Assembly: GCA_035254125.1 (NCBI GenBank)
Contig: DATFAX010000082.1
Span: forward strand, 1 to 32,000
DNA length: 32,000 nt
Source: Holophagaceae bacterium
GTDB lineage: Bacteria; Acidobacteriota; Holophagae; Holophagales; Holophagaceae
Reading direction: 5' to 3'
The number at the start of each line of letters is the position of its first letter. The stretch's first letter is position 1. The position numbers were made by a program, and so were the translations under genes. Of the stretch, positions 3,433 to 30,368 are shown in pieces. Under the pieces are notes generated by a model that made no database searches, was not told where the DNA came from, and saw only the letters and a list, made by a program, of their open reading frames with translations.

Positions 3433-4502
3433 TGGATTTCAAGGTCAAACCCCTGCCTGGAGCCGCCTTCCTGGCCATCGTCGTGGTCCTGCTGGCCCTG
3501 CCGAAGGTGATGACGGATCCCTACCGCATCCACATGACGATCCTCGTGATCCTCAGCTGCATCACGGGCATGAGCTGGAACATCCTGGGCGGCTTCACGG
3601 GCCAGCACAGCATCGGCCATGCGGCCTACTTCGGCGTGGGCGCCTACACCACCATGATCCTGCTGGAGAAGTTCAAGGTCGCCCCCTGGTACGGCGTATG
3701 GGCGGGCGCAGGCCTGGCGGTTGTCGTCGCGCTCATCATCGGCAGCATCTGCTTCCGGCTGCGGGGGCCCTACTTCGTGCTGGCCTCCATCGCCGTCACG
3801 GAGATCATGCGCATCTCGGCCATGAACCTGAAGGACATCACCAACGGCGCCGAGGGCATCCTCCTCAGCGAGATGCCGCCCTTCCACGTGGGCTCCAAGG
3901 TGCTGTGGGACTTCTCCAACAAGGAGCCCTTCTACTACACGGCCCTGGGCTTCGCCCTGCTCACCTTCGTCGTCACCTTCGCGGTGAAGCGCTCCAAGCT
4001 GGGCTACTGCCTCCAGGCCATCCGGGAGGATCAGGACGCGGCCCACTCCCTGGGCATCCCCCTCACCCGGTACAAGGTCTACGCCCTCTCGCTGAGCGCC
4101 CTGCTGACGGGGCTGGCCGGCGGGCTCTACGGCACCTACGTGGGCTTCGTGGATCCGGCCACGGTGCTCGGCCTCGACCTCTCGGTGCAGATCGCCCTGC
4201 TCTGCATCATCGGCGGCATCGGCACCCTCTCCGGTCCTTTGCTGGGCGCCTGCCTCCTGGTGCCCCTCTCGGAGATCCTGCGCAGCAACCTCATGACGGA
4301 GTGGCTGCTCAAGGGCGGCGTGGTGTCGGCGGAGAGCCGAACGGGCCTCTTCCTCAAGGAGCACCTGGCCCATGCCCACGTGCTCATCTACGGCATCCTC
4401 GTGGTGCTCGTGATCCTCTTCATGCCCGACGGCATCATGGGCTTCTTCAAGCGGCTGCGGGGCTGGCTCACGCCCCGCGCAGCCGCGAAGGAGGCCGCAT
4501 GA
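3432..4502 (+). CDS. livM: branched-chain amino acid ABC transporter permease (LivM type)
   Basis: 356-aa multi-TM ORF. Its ATG overlaps the livH stop (TGATG), indicating translational coupling. Confidence 0.85.
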   Translation: MDFKVKPLPGAAFLAIVVVLLALPKVMTDPYRIHMTILVILSCITGMSWNILGGFTGQHSIGHAAYFGVGAYTTMILLEKFKVAPWYGVWAGAGLAVVVALIIGSICFRLRGPYFVLASIAVTEIMRISAMNLKDITNGAEGILLSEMPPFHVGSKVLWDFSNKEPFYYTALGFALLTFVVTFAVKRSKLGYCLQAIREDQDAAHSLGIPLTRYKVYALSLSALLTGLAGGLYGTYVGFVDPATVLGLDLSVQIALLCIIGGIGTLSGPLLGACLLVPLSEILRSNLMTEWLLKGGVVSAESRTGLFLKEHLAHAHVLIYGILVVLVILFMPDGIMGFFKRLRGWLTPRAAAKEAA

Positions 4503-5216
4503 GCGCCCTCCTGGAGCTCCGCTCCGTCAGCAAGCGCTTCGGCGGCCTCAAGGCCAACAGCGACGTCTCCTTTGAAGTTCGAGAGGGGCAGATCGTGGGC
4601 CTCATCGGGCCCAACGGCGCCGGGAAGACCACCCTCTTCAACGGCATCACGGGCTTCGATCCTCCCACATCGGGGGAAGTCCTCTTCAAGGGGCGCGTGG
4701 TGAACGGCCTGGGGCCCGACGCCCTATGCCGCCTGGGCATGGTGCGCACCTGGCAGAAGGTGCGGCCCCTGGCCAAGCTCACGGTGCTGGAAAACGTGCT
4801 CATCGGCGCCCTCTGCCACACGAGCCACCTGGGCCGGGCTTCGGAGCTGGCCATGGCCCAGCTGGAGCGCGTGGGCCTGGGCGCCAAGGCGGAGTTCCTG
4901 GGCGGCGCGCTGCCCATCGGCGAGCGTAAGAAGCTGGAAGTGGCCCGGGCCCTGGCCACCCAGCCCACCTTGCTGCTGCTGGACGAGGTCATGGGCGGTC
5001 TGAACCCGGCGGAGAGCGAGGAGATCATCCAGCTCCTGCTCGGCCTGCGGGCGGCGGGCGGTCTCACCCAGGTGGTCATCGAGCACGACATGAAGGCCAT
5101 CATGCGGCTCTCGGATCACGTGGTCGTCCTCAACTCCGGCGAAAAGCTCACGGAGGGCAAGCCCGAGGACGTGGTGCGGCATCCGGCGGTCATCGAAGCC
5201 TACCTGGGAGAAGCCC

Positions 5217-7230: not shown

Positions 7231-7971
7231 TCAGCGCCGCTCGACGGTTTGGATGTCCATGTAGGTCTTCCGGGGATCCACCATGACCGCACCGAAGCGG
7301 CCGCGGTCCAAGGTGTAGGTGTGGTCGTCGGAGCTGCGCAGGGGCTCGCCCAGGGGGTCGAAGACGTGGTTGCCGGCGCCGGCGAAGGGTTCGCCGGGCC
7401 ACTCGGAGGCGCTGATGGCGCAGACGGCGGCGAAGCAGGCGTTCTCGATGGCTCGGGCCCGGAGCAGGGTGGAGATGACGTGGTCCCGGCGCCAGGGCCA
7501 CCAGGCCACGGCCAGCAGCAGGTCGGCGCCGCCCTCCAGGGTGAGGGCCCGGGCCTGCTCGGGGAAGCGCAGGTCGTTGCAGTTGAGGAGGCCCAGGGTC
7601 CAGTCGCCCAGCTTCACGGAGACGTAGCGATCGCCCGGATCCCAGAGGCGGCCCTCGTCGTTGGGGGCGAAGAGGTGCACCTTGTCGTAGCTGGCCTTCT
7701 CCAGGCCCCCTTGCCACGCGGTCATGCGGTTGCGGCGCTCCTCGGTGAAGGAGCCGAATACGAAGCCGGTGGCGGGGTGATCGCCGGAGATCCGGCGGAA
7801 GGCCGCCCGAGCCACGGCCGGATCCACCTCCCGGGTGTAGCCGTGGAGGAAGCTCTCGGGAAACACCACGAGGTCCGCGCCCCCCTGCGCCGCCGCGTGG
7901 GCCTCGGCCTCCATGCGGGCCAGGTTGGAGGCCGGATCCATGCACACGAAGCGGGAGAGGTGGAGGCGCAT
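7231..7971 (-). CDS. carbon-nitrogen hydrolase (nitrilase superfamily) protein
   Basis: ADLVVFPESF (catalytic Glu block) and LLNCNDLRFPE (catalytic Cys block) are present. I prefer the ATG at 7971 (MRLHLSRFV...). The ORF is open up to a TTG at 8073, which would abut the tRNA promoter, so the start is uncertain. Confidence 0.75.
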   Translation of the reverse strand: MRLHLSRFVCMDPASNLARMEAEAHAAAQGGADLVVFPESFLHGYTREVDPAVARAAFRRISGDHPATGFVFGSFTEERRNRMTAWQGGLEKASYDKVHLFAPNDEGRLWDPGDRYVSVKLGDWTLGLLNCNDLRFPEQARALTLEGGADLLLAVAWWPWRRDHVISTLLRARAIENACFAAVCAISASEWPGEPFAGAGNHVFDPLGEPLRSSDDHTYTLDRGRFGAVMVDPRKTYMDIQTVERR

Positions 7972-18150: not shown

Positions 18151-19233
18151 ATGAAAGCGCACCTGATCCTGAAGGACGGCACGATCTTCCGGGGACGGGC
18201 GCCATTGGGCTTCGGAGGCGGCGGCGAGGCGGTGTTCACCACGGCCATGGCGGGCTACCAGGAGATCCTCACGGATCCCAGCTTCGCCGGCCAGATGGTC
18301 ACCATGACCTTCCCCGAGCAGGGCATCTACGGCATCCACGCGGACCTCAACGAGGCCGCCCGCCCCTGGGCCACGGCCCTCCTCTGCCGCCGCCTCAACG
18401 GGCAGCCCGACCACACCCTGAGCGAGGGGGACCTGGGCGGCTGGCTCAAGCGGCATCGCATCCCCGTGCTCACGGAGCTGGATACCCGCGCCCTCACCCA
18501 GCACCTCCGCGACCAGGGGTCCCAGCCCGGCCTCATCTGGACCGAAGGGGACGGCAGCCTGGAGGCGGGCGTCGCCAAGGCCAAGGCCCTGCCGGACATG
18601 TCCGGCCAGGCCCTCTGCAGCGAGGTGAGTTGCAAGGACCGCTACGAGATCAAGCGCGAGGCCGCCGCCTTCCGCGTGTCCGTGCTGGACGGCGGCATCA
18701 AGCAGAGCATCCTCGACCAGCTCTCGGCCGCGGGCCTGGATCTGGAAGTCTTCCCCTGGGACACGCCCGCCACGGAGCTGCTGGCGAGCCGCTTCCACGG
18801 CGTCTTCCTCAGCAACGGCCCCGGCGACCCCGGCGCCCTGCCGGGCATGCAGGCCGAAGTGGGCAAGCTCATCGGCCAGCGCCCCATCTTCGGCATCTGC
18901 CTGGGCCACCAGCTGCTGGGTCACGCCTTCGGCGGCACCACCTTCAAGCTGAAGTTCGGCCACCGCGGCGCCAACCAGCCCGTGCAGGACCTGGAGACGG
19001 GCCGCATCGAGATCACCGCCCAGAACCACGGCTTCGCCGTGGATGAGAAGAGCCTGCCGCCCGAGATCATGGTCACGCACCGCCACCTCAGCGATGACAC
19101 GGTGGAGGGCCTGCGGCACACAACCCTGCCCATCTTCTCCCTGCAGCACCACCCGGAGGCCAGCCCCGGCCCCCACGACGCCCGTTCGGCCTTCGGCAAG
19201 TTCGTGAAGCTGCTTGCGGAAAGCAAGAAGTGA
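18151..19233 (+). CDS. carA: carbamoyl-phosphate synthase small (glutaminase) subunit
   Basis: The 360-aa ORF has the GATase class I triad block GICLGHQLL and HHPEASPGP. It lies directly upstream of carB. Confidence 0.95.
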   Translation: MKAHLILKDGTIFRGRAPLGFGGGGEAVFTTAMAGYQEILTDPSFAGQMVTMTFPEQGIYGIHADLNEAARPWATALLCRRLNGQPDHTLSEGDLGGWLKRHRIPVLTELDTRALTQHLRDQGSQPGLIWTEGDGSLEAGVAKAKALPDMSGQALCSEVSCKDRYEIKREAAAFRVSVLDGGIKQSILDQLSAAGLDLEVFPWDTPATELLASRFHGVFLSNGPGDPGALPGMQAEVGKLIGQRPIFGICLGHQLLGHAFGGTTFKLKFGHRGANQPVQDLETGRIEITAQNHGFAVDEKSLPPEIMVTHRHLSDDTVEGLRHTTLPIFSLQHHPEASPGPHDARSAFGKFVKLLAESKK

Positions 19234-19646
19234 TGGACCACCAAGACACCAAGACACCAAGAAAGGACTTGGAGCCTAGGCTGGAAGAGCTGGCGGCGAC
19301 GATTGTCGATTCGGCGATCAAGGTGCATCGGTCGCTGGGGCCTGGGCTCTTGGAGAATGTCTACGAGGTGTGCTTGATCCGGGAGCTGACGACCCGGGGG
19401 CTGAAGGTGCAGCGGCAGGTGTCGCTCCCCGTTTTCTACGAAGGCCTGGAGCTGGATGCGGGCCTTCGACTGGATCTCCTGGTCGAGGGAGATGTGGTGA
19501 TTGAACTGAAGGCGGTGGAGGCCATCCTCCCCGTGCATCACGCCCAGTTGCTCACCTATTTGAAGCTGGCGGACAAACGCCTCGGATTCCTGATCAATTT
19601 CAACTCCCCAGTCCTCAAGGACGGCATTCACAGGAGGATCCTGTGA
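19233..19646 (+). CDS. GxxExxY family protein (PD-(D/E)XK nuclease-like fold, PDDEXK_3-type)
   Basis: It carries GLLENVY (GxxExxY), then DLLVEGDVVIELK (D...E.K nuclease-like motif) and HHAQLLTYLKL. The first ~10 codons are just the translated repeat arm, so the true start may be later. Confidence 0.75.
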   Translation: MDHQDTKTPRKDLEPRLEELAATIVDSAIKVHRSLGPGLLENVYEVCLIRELTTRGLKVQRQVSLPVFYEGLELDAGLRLDLLVEGDVVIELKAVEAILPVHHAQLLTYLKLADKRLGFLINFNSPVLKDGIHRRIL

Positions 19647-19680
19647 CCTGCTTTTCTTGGTGTCTTGGTGTCTTGGTGGT
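19238..19680 (+). mobile_element. 443-bp cassette bounded by perfect 27-bp inverted repeats of tandem CACCAAGA octamers, carrying a GxxExxY ORF
   Basis: 19238-19264 (accaccaagacaccaagacaccaagaa) is the exact reverse complement of 19654-19680. The cassette fills the carA-carB spacer. Confidence 0.7.
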
Positions 19681-19685
19681 GACCC

Positions 19686-22600
19686 ATGCCTAAGCGCTCC
19701 GACATCCACTCCGTCCTCGTCCTCGGCAGCGGCCCCATCCAGATCGGGCAGGCCTGCGAGTTCGACTACTCCGGCACCCAGGCCCTGAAGGCGCTCCGCG
19801 AGGAGGGCATCCGCACCATCCTGCTGAACTCCAATCCGGCCTCGATCATGACGGACCCGGCCCGGGCCGACCGCACCTACATCGAGCCCCTGACGCTGGC
19901 CGTGCTGGAGAAGATCCTTGAGGTGGAGAAGCCCGACGCGGTGCTGCCCACCGTGGGCGGCCAGACGGCCCTGAACCTGGCCATGGAGGCCCACAAGGCG
20001 GGGCTCTTCCAGCGCCTGGGCGTGCGCCTCATCGGCGCCCAGCCGGATGCCATCGAGCGGGGCGAGGACCGCGAGGTCTTCAAGAAGCTCATGGACGAGC
20101 TGGGCCTGGAGACCTGCCGCGGCGGCTTCGCCCACAGCATGGAGGAGGCGCGGGAGCTCCTGAAGATCACCGGCTTCCCCGCCATCATCCGCCCCTCCTT
20201 CACCCTGGGCGGCAGCGGCGGCGGCATCGCCTACAACGTGGAGGAGTTCGAGACCATCGTGGCCCGGGGCCTCGACCTGAGTCCCACCCGCCAGCTCCTC
20301 ATCGAGGAGAGCATCCTGGGGTGGAAGGAGTTCGAACTGGAGGTGGTGCGGGACCTGGACGACAACGTGGAGGTCATCTGCTCCATCGAGAACCTGGATC
20401 CCATGGGCGTCCACACGGGGGACAGCATCACCGTGGCGCCGGCCCTCACCCTTACGGACCCCGAGTACCAGCGCATGCGCGAGGCCGCTAAGGCCATCAT
20501 GCGCGGCGTGGGCGTAGAGACGGGCGGCAGCAACGTGCAGTTCGCCCTCAATCCCGAGGATGCCCGCATCATCGTCATCGAGATGAACCCCCGCGTGAGC
20601 CGCAGCTCCGCACTGGCCTCCAAGGCCACGGGCTTCCCCATCGCTTGGGTGGCCACGAAGCTGGCCCTGGGCTACCGCCTGTGGGAGCTGCCCAACGCCA
20701 TCACGCAGAAGACCAAGGCCGCCTTCGAGCCCGTGCTCGACTACGTGGTCGTGAAGATCCCCCGCTTCACCTTCGAGAAGTTCCCCCAGGCCCAGCCCGT
20801 GCTCGGCACCCAGATGAAGAGCGTGGGCGAGGTGATGTCCATCGGCCGCTCCTTCCAGGAGGCCCTGCAGAAGGCCGTGCGCTCCCTGGAGGAGGGCCAT
20901 GCGGGCCTCGCCGGCGCCCTGGAGGGCAAGCTGGACCTGAGCCGCCTGCGCGAGCACCTGCTCATCCCCGGCCCTCAGCGCCTCTTCTGGCTCTACCACG
21001 CCCTCAAGGCGGGCCACACCGTGGAGGAGCTCCACCGCCTCACGAAGGTGACCTCCTGGTTCCTGCGGGAGATCGAGGAGATCGTCATCCTCGAGGGTCG
21101 GCTCCGCGGCTTCAGCGTGGACCGACTGCCCGAGGAACTGCTGGAGAAGGCCAAGCGGGCCGGTTTCAGCGACGGCCAGATCGCCGTGTTCTGCGGCGGC
21201 TCCGACTGGGAGGTGAAGAAGCGCCGCCACGCCCTGGGCATCCACCCCGTCTACAAGCGGGTGGACACCTGCAGCGGCGAGTTCGTGGCGGAGACGCCCT
21301 ACCTCTACGGCACCTGGGAGTACGGCGACGCCAGCGAGGCCACGCCCTCGGACCGCCCCAAGGCCATCGTGCTGGGCTCCGGCCCCAACCGCATCGGCCA
21401 GGGCGTGGAGTTCGACTGCTGCTGCGTGCAGGCGGTGGAGGCCATCCGGGCCTCCGGCGTCGAGGCGATCCTCATCAACTGCAACCCCGAGACGGTGAGC
21501 ACGGACTTCGACACCAGCGACCGCCTCTACTTCGAGCCCCTCACCCACGAGCACGTGAAGAGCGTGATCCGTCGCGAAGGTTCCAACGGCAAGCTGCTGG
21601 GCGTCTTCGCCCAGTTCGGAGGCCAGACGCCCCTCAAGCTGGCCGGCCGCCTGGATGCCGAGGGCGTCACCCTGCTGGGCACGCCCCTGCAGGCCATCAA
21701 CGATGCCGAGGACCGGGAGCGCTTCGGCAAGGTGCTCCAGAAGCTGGGCATCCCCGTGGCCAAGTGGGGCATGGCTTCGAGCCTCGAGCAGGCCCGGACC
21801 ATCGCCCACGACATCCAGTACCCCGTGATGGTGCGCCCCAGCTTCGTGCTCGGAGGCCGCGGCATGGCCGTGGTCTTCGATGACGAGGGACTGGAGAAGT
21901 ACCTCCGCGAGGCCGCGGCCGTGAACGAGGACCAGCCCGTGCTGCTGGACCGCTACCTGGACGGCGCCCAGGAGCTGGATGTGGACCTGGTCTGCGACGG
22001 CCACCGCGTGGCCATTGCCGGCGTCATGGCCCACATCGAGGAGGCGGGCGTCCACAGCGGCGACAGCTTCGGCGTCTTCCCGCCCCTGGGCGTGGAGGAA
22101 TCGGTGCTGGAGACCGTGAAGGCCCAGAGCCGCCAGCTGGCCCTGGAGATCGGCGTGCGCGGCCTCATGAACCTCCAGTGGGCCATCAAGGATGGCGTGG
22201 CCTACTGCCTGGAGGCCAACCCCCGCGCCAGCCGCACGGTGCCCTTCATCAGCAAGGCCACGGGCCAGGACTGGGCGGGCATCGCGGCCCGCATCGGCCT
22301 GGGCCAGACCTTGGACGCGCAGCAGGTGAAGGACGGCGAGCCCCTGGCCGTGGCGGTGAAGGGCGTGGTCTTCCCCTTCGCCAAGTTCCCCGGCGTGGAT
22401 CCGGTGCTCGGCCCGGAGATGAAGAGCACGGGCGAGGTCATGGGCATCGGCGACACCTTCGGTGAAGCCTACGCCAAGGCCCTGGTGGCCGCGGGCATCC
22501 CGCTGCCCCTGAGCGGCACCGTGTTCATCAGTGTGAACGACAAGGACAAGGGCAAGTTGCAGGAGCTGGCCGGCAAGCTCACGGGCATGGGCTTCGGCCT

Positions 22601-22904
22601 CTGCGCCACGGAGGGCACGGCCCGCCACCTGGAGACCGTGGGCTACAAGGTGCGCCGCATCTTCAAGGTGAACGAGGGCCGCCCCCACGCCGTGGACCTC
22701 CTCAAGAACGGCGAGATCCAGTGGGTCATCAACAGCCCCCTGGGCCGCGACGCCTTCTTCGACGAGGGCGCCATCCGCAAGGAAGCCCTGCGCCTGAAGA
22801 TCCCCTGCCTCACCAACATGAACGCGGCCCTGGCCGCCTGCGAGGCCGTAGACACGCTGCGCAGCCAGCTCACGGTGCGGGCGCTGCAGAGCTTGAAGGG
22901 CTGA
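19686..22904 (+). CDS. carB: carbamoyl-phosphate synthase large subunit
   Basis: The 1072-aa ORF has duplicated ATP-grasp halves and a C-terminal MGS-like domain. Its N-terminus [33 protein letters not shown] is canonical. Confidence 0.95.
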
Positions 22905-25086: not shown

Positions 25087-25109
25087 GGGGCAGGGCGGTT
25101 GCGGGGTCG

Positions 25110-25259
25110 GGATCGCGAATAGCGCGAATAAGGGCGCGAATGGCGCGAATGAATAAGTAGGGTCGTCCTACCCATTCAAGGTGGGGTTCGGATTCCACCT
25201 TGGCCTCTTTCGACGTCTCATTCGCGCTATTCGCGCCTTTATTCGCGTCATTCGCGATC
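25110..25259. repeat. hairpin element C: GGATCGCGAAT-type arms (4 tandem GCGCGAAT units each side) around a ~63-nt core
   Basis: Left arm 25110-25154, right arm 25218-25259. 38 of 42 positions are complementary, and 3 of the 4 mismatches are G.T on the plus strand. The arm family is the same as element D. Confidence 0.8.
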
Positions 25260-25304
25260 TTCTTTTCCACCCCGATCCGAAGCCCCCTTTGGCATGCTCG
25301 AGGG

Positions 25305-28733: not shown

Positions 28734-29876
28734 GTGGCTGTGAATCGCGTGGTCCTCGCCTTCGCCCTGGCCGCTGTGGGCGTGCTGCGGGCCGATGACT
28801 TCCTGGACTGGGCCCGGGGCCTGGAGAAGCGGGGAGTGAAGGTGTCCGCCGCCTGCTGGGACCTGGAGACGGGCAAGGCCGTGGACCGACATCAGGAGCA
28901 CCTGATGCTGGTGCCCGCCAGCACCACGAAGGTGGTGAGCACCTACGCCCTGCTCAAGACCTGGAAGCCGGACTTCCAGGTGGAGACCGAGGTCTGGGGC
29001 CAACTGGCGGGGGGGGAGATCCAGGGGGACCTGGTGTTCAAGGGGGGCGGCGACCCCTACCTCACCACCGAGCGCCTCTACACCCTGGCCCGGGAACTGC
29101 GCGCCCTGGGCGTCAAGCGGGTGCTGGGGGAGATCAAGCTGGACCAGGGGGCCTTCGACGGGCAGCGCTGGGGCAACGGCTGGGAAAACACGAGCGCCGA
29201 CACCACGCCCGCCATCTCCGCCCTGGCCGTGAACTTCGGTCGCAATGCCGCCGGCCGCATCGTCACAGACACGGACCGCGCCGCCATCGAGGAGATCACC
29301 ACGGTGCTGGCCGATGCGGGCATCCCCGTGGCCGGCAAGGCGGGACTCAAGGATGCGCCCCTGAAGCTGCTCGCCTTCCGCAGCCCGCCCCTGCGCATGC
29401 TGGTGGGCGACATCAACAAATTCAGCAACAACTTCATGGTGGAGACGCTCACCAAGAAGTTCGGCGAGGGCTCCTGGCCCCGCGGCGTGGCCCGCATCCA
29501 CGACTTCTACGCCAAGGTCTTCGGCCTGGGGCCCGGCCAGCTGTTCCTCACGGACGGCAGCGGCCTCAGCAAGGACAACCGCCTCAGCGCCCAGACCCTG
29601 GGCATCGTGCTCCGGGGGGCCTGGTTCGATTTCGAAGTGGGCCCCGAGTTCGTCGCCAGCCTCAAGATCATCGGGGGCGAACCGTTCCGCCTCAAACACA
29701 AGGATGAGAACCTCACCCGCCGCGTGCGCGTGAAGAGCGGCTACCTCGACCTCGTGCGCACGCTCTGCGGCTACATCCAGATGCCCGACGGCCGCTGGCG
29801 CGTCTTCGCCATCCTCCTCAACGGGCAGACCACCGAGGATGATATTTGGGATCAGGTCAGTCGCTGGGCGAACTGA
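28734..29876 (+). CDS. dacB: D-alanyl-D-alanine carboxypeptidase/endopeptidase (PBP4, peptidase S13 family)
   Basis: The three active-site motifs are present: SxxK (PASTTK), SxN (FSNNF) and KSG (VKSGYL). There is an N-terminal signal sequence and a GTG start. Confidence 0.8.
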   Translation: MAVNRVVLAFALAAVGVLRADDFLDWARGLEKRGVKVSAACWDLETGKAVDRHQEHLMLVPASTTKVVSTYALLKTWKPDFQVETEVWGQLAGGEIQGDLVFKGGGDPYLTTERLYTLARELRALGVKRVLGEIKLDQGAFDGQRWGNGWENTSADTTPAISALAVNFGRNAAGRIVTDTDRAAIEEITTVLADAGIPVAGKAGLKDAPLKLLAFRSPPLRMLVGDINKFSNNFMVETLTKKFGEGSWPRGVARIHDFYAKVFGLGPGQLFLTDGSGLSKDNRLSAQTLGIVLRGAWFDFEVGPEFVASLKIIGGEPFRLKHKDENLTRRVRVKSGYLDLVRTLCGYIQMPDGRWRVFAILLNGQTTEDDIWDQVSRWAN

Positions 29877-30088
29877 GGGCCTACTCGAAGCCAGCATCCA
29901 CGGCTCAGGGTCTGGAGTATCCCGCCTCGCGGGATACCCAGAGGATGACATCTGGGACCAAGTCAGCCGCTGGGCGAACTGAGGACCTACTCGAAGCCAG
30001 CACCCACGGCTCAGGGTCTGGAGTATCCCGCCTCGCGGGATACCCAGAGGATGACATTTGGGACCAGGTCAGTCGCTGGGCCAACTGA
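29835..30088 (+). repeat. 106-bp tandem repeat (2.4 units), each unit starting with a copy of the last 13 codons plus stop of dacB
   Basis: Units start at 29835, 29941 and 30047. Each coding copy reads EDDIWDQVSRWAN*. The 64-nt spacers contain a 14-bp bulged hairpin (TCTGGAGTATCCCGC-CTC-GCGGGATACCCAGA). Confidence 0.85.
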
Positions 30089-30110
30089 GGGGCGTGTCGG
30101 GCCGGGGTCT

Positions 30111-30297
30111 GGATCGCGAATGGCGCGAATGAAAGCGCGAATGACGCGAATCAGCTGATCTGGGGATTGCCTTCCTGCTTTTCGGGCCCGATGAATGGGT
30201 CGAAGAGGTCCGCCCCTCGGGCAGCCACGCCGGGACCGAGGCCAGATAAATCCTCCATTTGCGTTATTCGCGCTTTTATTCGCGCCATTCGCGATCC
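30111..30297. repeat. hairpin element D: GGATCGCGAAT-type arms (4 tandem units each side) around a ~105-nt core
   Basis: Left arm 30111-30151, right arm 30257-30297. 38 of 41 positions are complementary, and all 3 mismatches are G.T on the plus strand. Confidence 0.8.
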
Positions 30298-30368
30298 CCC
30301 CAACGCACTCCGGGGAATCCAACCCTTCGATTCTCAATCCCCACCGGCCAGCCCCCGATGAGGTTCCC

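Follow-up and report, generated by a model that had tools for sequence, protein, structure and literature searches.

A hairpin-spaced array of synonymously diverged dacB gene ends in Holophagaceae, possibly built by gene-end insertion of a very small module

The window analysed here, a stretch of 32,000 nucleotides (nt) from a Holophagaceae bacterium (assembly GCA_035254125.1, contig DATFAX010000082.1, positions 1 to 32,000 of the forward strand; the genome is referred to as W), carries a tandem array of gene ends at the 3' terminus of dacB (28734..29876, + strand). This gene encodes the 380-amino-acid penicillin-binding protein PBP4, a D-Ala-D-Ala carboxypeptidase/endopeptidase (Pfam PF02113, Peptidase_S13, 1.5e-55; TIGR00666, 154 bits against a cut-off of 107.8). 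Its homologues carry the annotation Holophagaceae or Geothrix D-Ala-D-Ala carboxypeptidase, the best of them being proteins of Holophagaceae metagenome-assembled genomes (MAGs), and the C-terminus QVSRWAN* is kept in 117 of the 120 homologues listed. The window is ordinary chromosome, with the gene order acyltransferase, HD-GYP protein, 200-amino-acid protein, dacB, response regulator and EamA transporter, and the order around dacB is conserved at about 20 related loci.

The array consists of cores, each corresponding to the last 13 codons of dacB plus the stop codon (42 nt), and spacers, each made up of a tail and a hairpin; a core and its spacer form a unit, and n cores alternate with n-1 spacers. 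All features of the array lie on the + strand. Core 1 (29835..29876) is the functional dacB end, in frame with the gene, and is followed by a tail and not by native downstream DNA. Tail 1 (29877..29910; 34 nt), which contains an TCGAAGCC motif, is alignable with tails of the related genomes L003, L007, L006 and L012 and is missing in the sister genome L004. Hairpin 1 (29911..29942), with a 14-bp stem, a bulged A and the loop CTC, shares its last 2 nt with the first 2 nt of core 2 (29941..29982), a displaced gene end whose coding sequence is intact. Comparison of the units shows that tail 2 (29983..30016) differs from tail 1 by two transitions and that hairpin 2 (30017..30048) is an exact repeat of hairpin 1, followed by core 3 (30047..30088), the most distal copy, downstream of which the DNA is collinear with L004. 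According to Tandem Repeats Finder, positions 29835-30090 form one long-period array with 2.4 copies of a 106-nt period (92% matches, score 456), and a repeat search of the sequence as assembled returned three 45-nt copies with starts at 29835, 29941 and 30047.

Each of the three cores translates to EDDIWDQVSRWAN*, and the six sites at which they vary (core positions 9, 12, 18, 21, 27 and 36) are without exception synonymous third-codon positions, with five synonymous differences between cores 1 and 2 and three between cores 1 and 3. Core 1 alone stands in the dacB frame because the period of 106 is 3n+1, which places core 2 at +1. Between units 1 and 2, the five core differences are accompanied by differences at only 2 of 64 spacer positions (unit positions 45 and 63), so that third-position differences in the core (5 of 13) exceed those in the flanking tail (2 of 34; p = 0.012). 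An earlier note on this DNA, made from the sequence alone, had described three dacB-end copies with a period of 106 and six synonymous third-position sites, two 64-nt spacers with two differences and an identical bulged hairpin, and a single copy in the dacB frame; the copies were recovered letter for letter and the other two descriptions are borne out as well.

The same architecture is present in at least four other Holophagaceae assemblies, which belong to two deep clades (dacB 88% and 64% amino-acid identity, here clades 1 and 2) and have periods of 103-107. The cores of L007 (sediment metagenome; dacB 88% amino-acid identity; period 107) differ by two synonymous changes and one Asp/Glu change, at third positions throughout, and those of L003 (GTDB MAG; 88.6%; period 107) by five synonymous changes plus TAA versus TGA at the stop. 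In L049 (JGI metagenome; 64%; period 103) the cores differ by two synonymous changes, and L057 (NCBI MAG from the deep clade of L049; period 103) has three cores, of which cores 1 and 2 are the same except for the change of the stop from TGA to CGA and core 3 is broken. All arrays have fixed borders, the left one at the Glu codon that opens the last 13 codons and the right one at the stop itself, and the hairpin abuts the next core; the spacer between cores measures 61-65 nt in every lineage and comprises a homologous tail and the same hairpin. A search of JGI metagenomes for two dacB ends 80-110 nt apart matched 40 loci, among which L049 alone has dacB. A Logan contig from the same sequencing run as L007 stops exactly where core 1 ends, as expected if a true repeat breaks assembly there. 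The array architecture is regarded as real and an assembly artefact is unlikely, three being the number of units seen in the assembly of the window. L003 (CAZTVL010000007.1) is titled 'uncultured Solibacteraceae bacterium' and has a Holophagaceae-like dacB in the order HD-GYP protein, 196-amino-acid open reading frame (ORF), dacB and response regulator; its label looks doubtful.

The 32-nt hairpin (TCTGGAGTATCCCGC-CTC-GCGGGATACCCAGA, at 29911-29942 and 30017-30048) folds as DNA at -14 kcal/mol (z = -4.6) with the bulged A. Its outer stem and bulged A are kept in L003, L007, L049 and L057, thus in both clades, the inner stem being shorter by two pairs in clade 2. In two pairs both partners are altered, U-A having become C-G in L057 and C-G having become G-C in clade 2. 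Within clade 1 the tails can be aligned and have a TCGRAGCC motif in common; elsewhere they are strongly diverged. No third copy of the hairpin with up to three mismatches occurs in the window, the chance expectation also being none. A search for the exact hairpin in 185,579 species genomes returned three stretches, of which that of L003 (once per genome) is the sole real one, the matches in L001 (within a Pseudomonas coding sequence) and L002 (a low-GC genome) being due to chance, and JGI metagenomes gave 0 matches. A dispersed repeat was therefore rejected, the exact hairpin having been seen behind dacB only in these genome and metagenome searches. A terminator scan found no intrinsic terminator at 29911-29942 or 30017-30048, where GGATGAC and not a T-run comes next, and Rfam holds no family for the hairpin unit (best E = 1.2), so that a known RNA family or terminator was also rejected. 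A complementarity noted by eye, CCCAGA-N8-TCTGGG (8 nt apart; window 29937-29962 and 30043-30068, L003 7540-7562), which would pair the hairpin's 3' arm with the Ile-Trp codons of the core behind it, was considered as a recombinase core site or an alternative hairpin and is probably incidental; by eye it matches 6/6 in core 2 of W and of L003, 5/6 in W core 3 and L007 core 2, and 3-4/6 in clade 2.

The order in which units were added can be read from the DNA that follows each core. The 60 nt after W core 3 align with the DNA after the single core of L004 (48/57 identical, score 32.5), against a score of only 8 for the DNA after W cores 1 and 2. Likewise, the DNA after core 2 of L007 and of L003 matches L005, and core 2 of L049 matches the distal copy of L054. 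Since the last core is collinear with single-copy relatives, the added units lie on the gene-proximal side and the native end has been displaced distally. Core 3 of W, which has GAC, GAC, AGT and GCC in common with the L004 core, is on this comparison probably the original (native) dacB end of the W lineage, and core 1 is probably the most recently supplied one. Plain local tandem duplication of core, tail and hairpin was rejected, as it predicts n spacers and the arrays have n-1, with the native flank after the last core.

Presence and absence of the array change over short distances. No spacer remnant was found within 350 nt past dacB in 8 of 10 non-array relatives, which have a single core and an empty end (L004, L005, L009, L010, L011, L013, L182 and L058), and the other two carry leftovers, consisting of a tail in L006 and a decayed unit in L054. 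The dacB nucleotide tree contains the sister pairs (W, L004), (L003, L005) and (L007, L006), with 91-92% nucleotide identity, and each of the three pairs joins one array genome to one non-array genome. L011 and L012 have identical dacB nucleotides, with a tail after the stop in L012 only.

The divergence between cores is of a coding type. Pooled over the five genomes, 16 of the 16 sense-codon sites at which cores within a genome vary lie at third positions (15 synonymous and one Asp/Glu), which has a probability of 2e-8 if changes are spread uniformly and of 1.5e-5 under a mix with half of the changes at third positions, this mix being our own assumption, in which displaced copies are taken as unconstrained. 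The cores also carry the lineage-specific residues of their own genome, as position 4 (Ile, Leu or Ala) and positions 2, 3 and 6 (Asp or Glu) show. Decay is seen in core 2 of L057, which has lost its stop, and in core 3 of L057 and the homologous distal copy of L054, which have an insertion of about 44 nt, a 1-nt deletion and changes at first positions. Both findings are most simply reconciled if the intact distal cores have only recently ceased to be working gene ends, and if the cores differ only synonymously because each served as a gene end, here or in a donor, until its recent displacement. The earlier note had argued that each copy diverged as a working gene end, and the 16 third-position sites, the collinearity of the distal copy and the synonymous hot spot described below all agree with this; the non-synonymous and frameshifting changes that it had named as contrary evidence, if present at similar rates in the extra copies of relatives, are confined to the oldest distal copies and do not occur at similar rates.

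The last 13 codons of dacB are also a hot spot of synonymous divergence between genomes. Between sisters they differ at 17 of 39 third positions, compared with 8 of 91 at the conserved ends of the HD-GYP, response-regulator and EamA genes (Fisher p = 1.3e-5), and no other of the 26 consecutive 13-codon blocks in dacB is as divergent as the core, the adjacent block having 5 differences. The island is present even if one sister has no array, which suggests that gene-end replacement also happened in single-copy genomes. The pair L003 and L005 presents a reciprocal hybrid, with core 1 native-like in its first three codons and foreign beyond them and core 2 the reverse. Taken together with the presence and absence of the array among sisters, these patterns suggest that the terminal 42 nt are exchanged as one block, independently of the gene body. 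A foreign origin of core 1 was also sought in codon usage and dropped as not discriminating: its A/T-ending codons (5/13, in a gene with a third-position GC content of 0.93) have parallels at the ends of other window genes, which are A/T-rich too (36/247 in their last 13 codons, up to 6/13).

Other small repeats occur around dacB and elsewhere in the window. Foldbacks resembling miniature inverted-repeat transposable elements (MITEs), with inverted arms of about 41-52 nt made of roughly 9-nt CGCGAATNN repeats, lie at 25100-25262 and 30103-30307. One of them (CGCGAAT), called Element D in the earlier note and placed there just after the third copy, does start 15-22 nt past core 3; it is found at the same place in L004 (2229-2415), and a CGCGAAG-type variant follows the distal core in L003 (about 7600-7735) and L007 (about 4270-4400). 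After dacB, L010 has repeat blocks of the GACGCGGAG / GCGCAGAA type together with a long perfect palindrome (4160-4552), and L013 has CAAGACT heptamer repeats (1296-1380). The spacer between dacB and the response-regulator gene is a general landing zone of small elements. The dacB homologues P0009 (L013) and P0094 extend 5-9 residues beyond the usual ...SRWAN end; in L013, GCGAATGAGGCC stands in place of the GCGAAYTGAGG of relatives, and a single nucleotide seems to have been deleted in the AAY-TGA region.

Away from dacB, a gene for a 138-amino-acid GxxExxY protein (19230-19678; TIGR04256, 146 bits) stands between carA (18151-19233) and carB (19686-22904) and is bracketed by inverted tandem octamers, CACCAAGA x3 (19239-19262) and TCTTGGTG x3 (19655-19678); this segment looks like a small inserted element splitting carAB. 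A third kind of foldback with short-tandem-repeat arms, at 197-301, adjoins the phosphatidylserine decarboxylase gene and consists of inverted tandem-decamer blocks, TTCATCTCCG x3 (197-226) and GAGATGAACG x3.5 (267-301), about 40 nt apart.

The architecture of the dacB array with its fixed borders, its gene-proximal polarity, the coding-type divergence and decay of its cores, its presence and absence among close relatives and the 13-codon hot spot lead us to propose, with somewhat less than even confidence, that a cargo-less hairpin module of about 105 bp inserts by recombination in the terminal 42 nt of dacB and supplies a surrogate gene end each time. The module would comprise a variable tail of about 30-35 nt and a conserved bulged hairpin of 28-32 nt, and would be resident at the Holophagaceae dacB 3' end. 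Entry would take place in Campbell fashion, through recombination inside the 42 nt that end the gene, and each insertion would therefore lie between two versions of the terminal segment. The proximal version would become the new dacB terminus, a surrogate end of wholly or partly incoming origin, and the previous end would be shifted downstream to a position immediately behind the hairpin. Two such rounds could have produced the three W cores, with core 3 native and cores 1 and 2 later arrivals, and cores displaced for long times would decay. Insertion into naive sites would still be going on, performed by a recombinase acting in trans or by RecA. The hairpin may be the structure recognised by this putative recombinase; its size and imperfection, with an extrahelical base, resemble those of hairpins bound by HUH-type enzymes or of recombinase recognition structures.

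A bolder version, which we consider unlikely, holds that the unit of about 105 bp is an active mobile cassette, smaller than any integrative module described so far, and that an enzyme of Holophagaceae which recognises the hairpin, be it a recombinase or an HUH enzyme, moves it in trans. Insertion of such a cassette would be harmless because it brings a replacement for the last 13 codons of a gene for a cell-wall enzyme, through which it would persist, and its traffic would make these codons a hot spot of allele exchange between species.

Several observations weigh against insertion of a hairpin module. Integrase, transposase and reverse transcriptase are absent from the 30 window ORFs scanned, and a recombinase is absent from the called genes of the roughly 20 related loci, which display conserved synteny only. 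No copy of the module away from dacB was found in 185,579 species genomes, JGI metagenomes, IMG/VR, plasmids or phages: the core pattern gave 0 matches in IMG/VR viral contigs, a loose hairpin pattern gave only chance matches in viral contigs among the matches listed, the unit had no BLAST match in plasmids and phages, and the viral, plasmid and phage collections contained no attP-like copy. The tails diverge between lineages about as the hosts do, which vertical inheritance fits too, and a circle of about 105 bp would be unusually small for excision and integration of the conventional kind. Many of the patterns described above could also arise through homologous recombination between strains, and the site counts are small (13 codons per core), with sister genomes that serve as native proxies already 8-9% diverged.

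The main rival, a serious one that we nevertheless hold to be rather unlikely, is an endogenous array that arose in one ancient event, which set a tail and a hairpin between two gene-end copies, was then inherited vertically, grew and shrank through unequal crossing-over or slippage and was patched by homologous recombination between strains, which would keep bringing functional alleles into any of the cores. The homology of the unit in both clades and the divergence of tails along with hosts agree with this explanation, as does the failure to find a recombinase or a donor form in the searches made. The identical cores of units 1 and 2 in L057 are what a recent duplication within the array would give, and exact loss through the 42-nt direct repeats would account for the clean single-copy relatives. 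Displaced cores would then have been non-coding for a long time, yet positions 1 and 2 vary at 0 of 16 sites, and the distal cores of W, L003 and L007 differ almost solely at third positions, whereas the intervening tails are barely alignable. Refreshing a distal core by recombination would require a crossover within 42 nt, while the much longer adjoining homology would delete the array. An endogenous origin alone also gives no reason for the synonymous jump exactly at the core border, or for conservation of the hairpin across about 36% protein divergence.

Strict cargo loss, in which a full-size island or prophage with an integrase entered the dacB end each time and left a unit behind as its scar, is improbable. 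In its favour, elements that integrate at gene 3' ends, such as e14 at icd, leave an identity segment (here 42 nt), a restored gene and repeats that differ synonymously, and there is documentation both for decayed elements with attL and attR still in place and for tandem accretion. The same remnant of 61-65 nt is found in five genomes, in two deep clades and in both W units, and independent deletions would not converge on one remnant; moreover, about 20 related loci showed no full-size occupant, and a viral contig with a core was not found. The earlier note had proposed successive insertions followed by loss of cargo. Its first half stands, since insertion fits the polarity of arrays in which the most distal copies decay (L057 and L054), and its second half is not supported as stated, the same cargo-less spacer being found between cores in all lineages; the integrative-element cargo it invoked found no counterpart, as neither an integrase nor a full-size element, nor a phage or plasmid copy, appeared among the window ORFs, the related loci or the collections scanned.

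To much the same degree, it is improbable that the array is a 3'-untranslated-region module selected by the host, with the hairpin working in the dacB transcript as a stabiliser, processing site or protein-binding site and the extra cores kept because they are expressed or functional. Conservation of the hairpin, in which the bulged A never varies and two pairs have changed in both partners, would suit such a role, and in W the reading frames of cores 2 and 3 stay open upstream as far as into core 1. However, the periods of 103, 106 and 107 give different frames, that of L003 core 2 closes right past core 1 and an in-frame start codon is absent; translation of the extra cores through frameshift or read-through was rejected on account of these varying and closed frames. 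The hairpin has neither a T-run terminator nor an Rfam family, the module is absent from most close relatives, and distal cores are observed to decay.

An assembly artefact, in which the array or its third unit was stitched from strain variants, draws on the apparently metagenome-derived source, the reliance of unit number on assembly and the synonymous variants that co-existing strains would contribute, and is barely credible given independent arrays on contigs whose names point to different assemblers (L003, NODE_; L007, k127_; L049, JGI; L057, NCBI MAG), the break of the Logan contig as at a true repeat, only 17 identical nt in common at the 3' ends of cores 1 and 2, which is below usual assembly k-mer sizes, and W spacers that differ from each other at 2 sites.

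If the proposed insertion of a hairpin module is true, gene-end integration with a surrogate end needs no large element, and some 60 nt with a hairpin are enough to occupy a gene end, stack there and leave it. This would represent a new, very small class of site-specific insertion and would hint at a new recombination activity in a poorly studied phylum (Acidobacteriota, here Holophagaceae). The sharp 13-codon island of excess synonymous change would be a natural example of the footprint that insertion traffic leaves in a housekeeping gene. There is also a practical side, in that dacB arrays break short-read assemblies and risk being mistaken for strain-mixing artefacts.

Among known systems, the closest parallel in gene structure is found in e14 and phage 21 at icd. 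Integration of e14 leaves icdC, a C-terminal fragment of the gene with synonymous changes, and its excision can be recognised from such changes (PMC13626634). Like these elements, the dacB array has terminal coding repeats that flank an insert, a proximal repeat that ends the gene, mostly synonymous or conservative differences and empty sites in relatives: in W, L003, L007, L049 and L057, 42-nt repeats flank the spacers and dacB is full length. In contrast to the roughly 15 kb of those elements, the insert measures 61-65 nt and is without integrase, excisionase or cargo, no integrase being encoded in the 64-nt insert, the 30 window ORFs or the genes of related loci. The dacB units are also stacked in tandem, with a conserved hairpin abutting each displaced end.

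Stacking is reminiscent of the accretion of streptococcal integrative and conjugative or mobilisable elements (ICEs and IMEs), whose decay products, the cis-mobilisable elements (CIMEs), are of kilobase size and derive from identifiable ICEs. CIMEs keep attL and attR, lack integration genes and accrete in tandem when a newcomer enters an att site of which the gene end is part (PMC5704250). The dacB module likewise is without integration genes, has attL- and attR-like cores and forms tandem arrays at a gene 3' end; the 64-nt insert between its two intact cores is non-coding and holds no integration or transfer genes. It differs in its unit of about 105 bp, and neither the roughly 20 loci nor the scanned collections yielded a related autonomous ICE or IME parent.

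Small non-coding units with an imperfect palindrome downstream of a gene are also known as repetitive extragenic palindromes (REPs) and their REPIN pairs, MITEs and the palindrome-associated transposable elements (PATEs) derived from IS200/IS605, whose target duplication is none or short. The dacB hairpin differs in that it is not dispersed, occurs once per unit and is flanked by a 42-nt coding duplication; the two window copies both lie in the array, and the L003 genome has one exact match.

The apparent addition of dacB units at the gene-proximal end, with older ones pushed distally, and the hairpin at the unit boundary recall integron arrays and those of clustered regularly interspaced short palindromic repeats (CRISPRs). 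The integron attC consensus has R' and R'' boxes (GTTRRRY / RYYYAAC) around an imperfect palindrome, whereas the dacB hairpin TCTGGAGTATC...GATACCCAGA is without AAC/GTT boxes. Unlike those of CRISPRs, the dacB 'spacers' are homologous to each other and not unique; the Rfam family CRISPR-DR28 matches the array at 16.3 bits (E = 8.9), and the scanned window ORFs include no intI or cas genes. Diversity-generating retroelements, with their template and variable repeats, also have a repeat of a gene's 3' coding end adjoining a hairpin. The W mismatches (T/C, G/A and G/C), however, are at third positions, are not adenine-specific and leave the protein unchanged, and there is no reverse transcriptase of such retroelements among the scanned window ORFs.

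On these comparisons the W array appears to function most like gene-3'-end integrative elements that bring a replacement end, without demonstrated membership in the e14 type or the CIMEs; neither the defining integrase nor a parent element turned up at the related loci or in the collections scanned. The literature searched contained no account of a structure of this kind, and the dacB array is apparently a very small, undescribed variant of gene-end integration.

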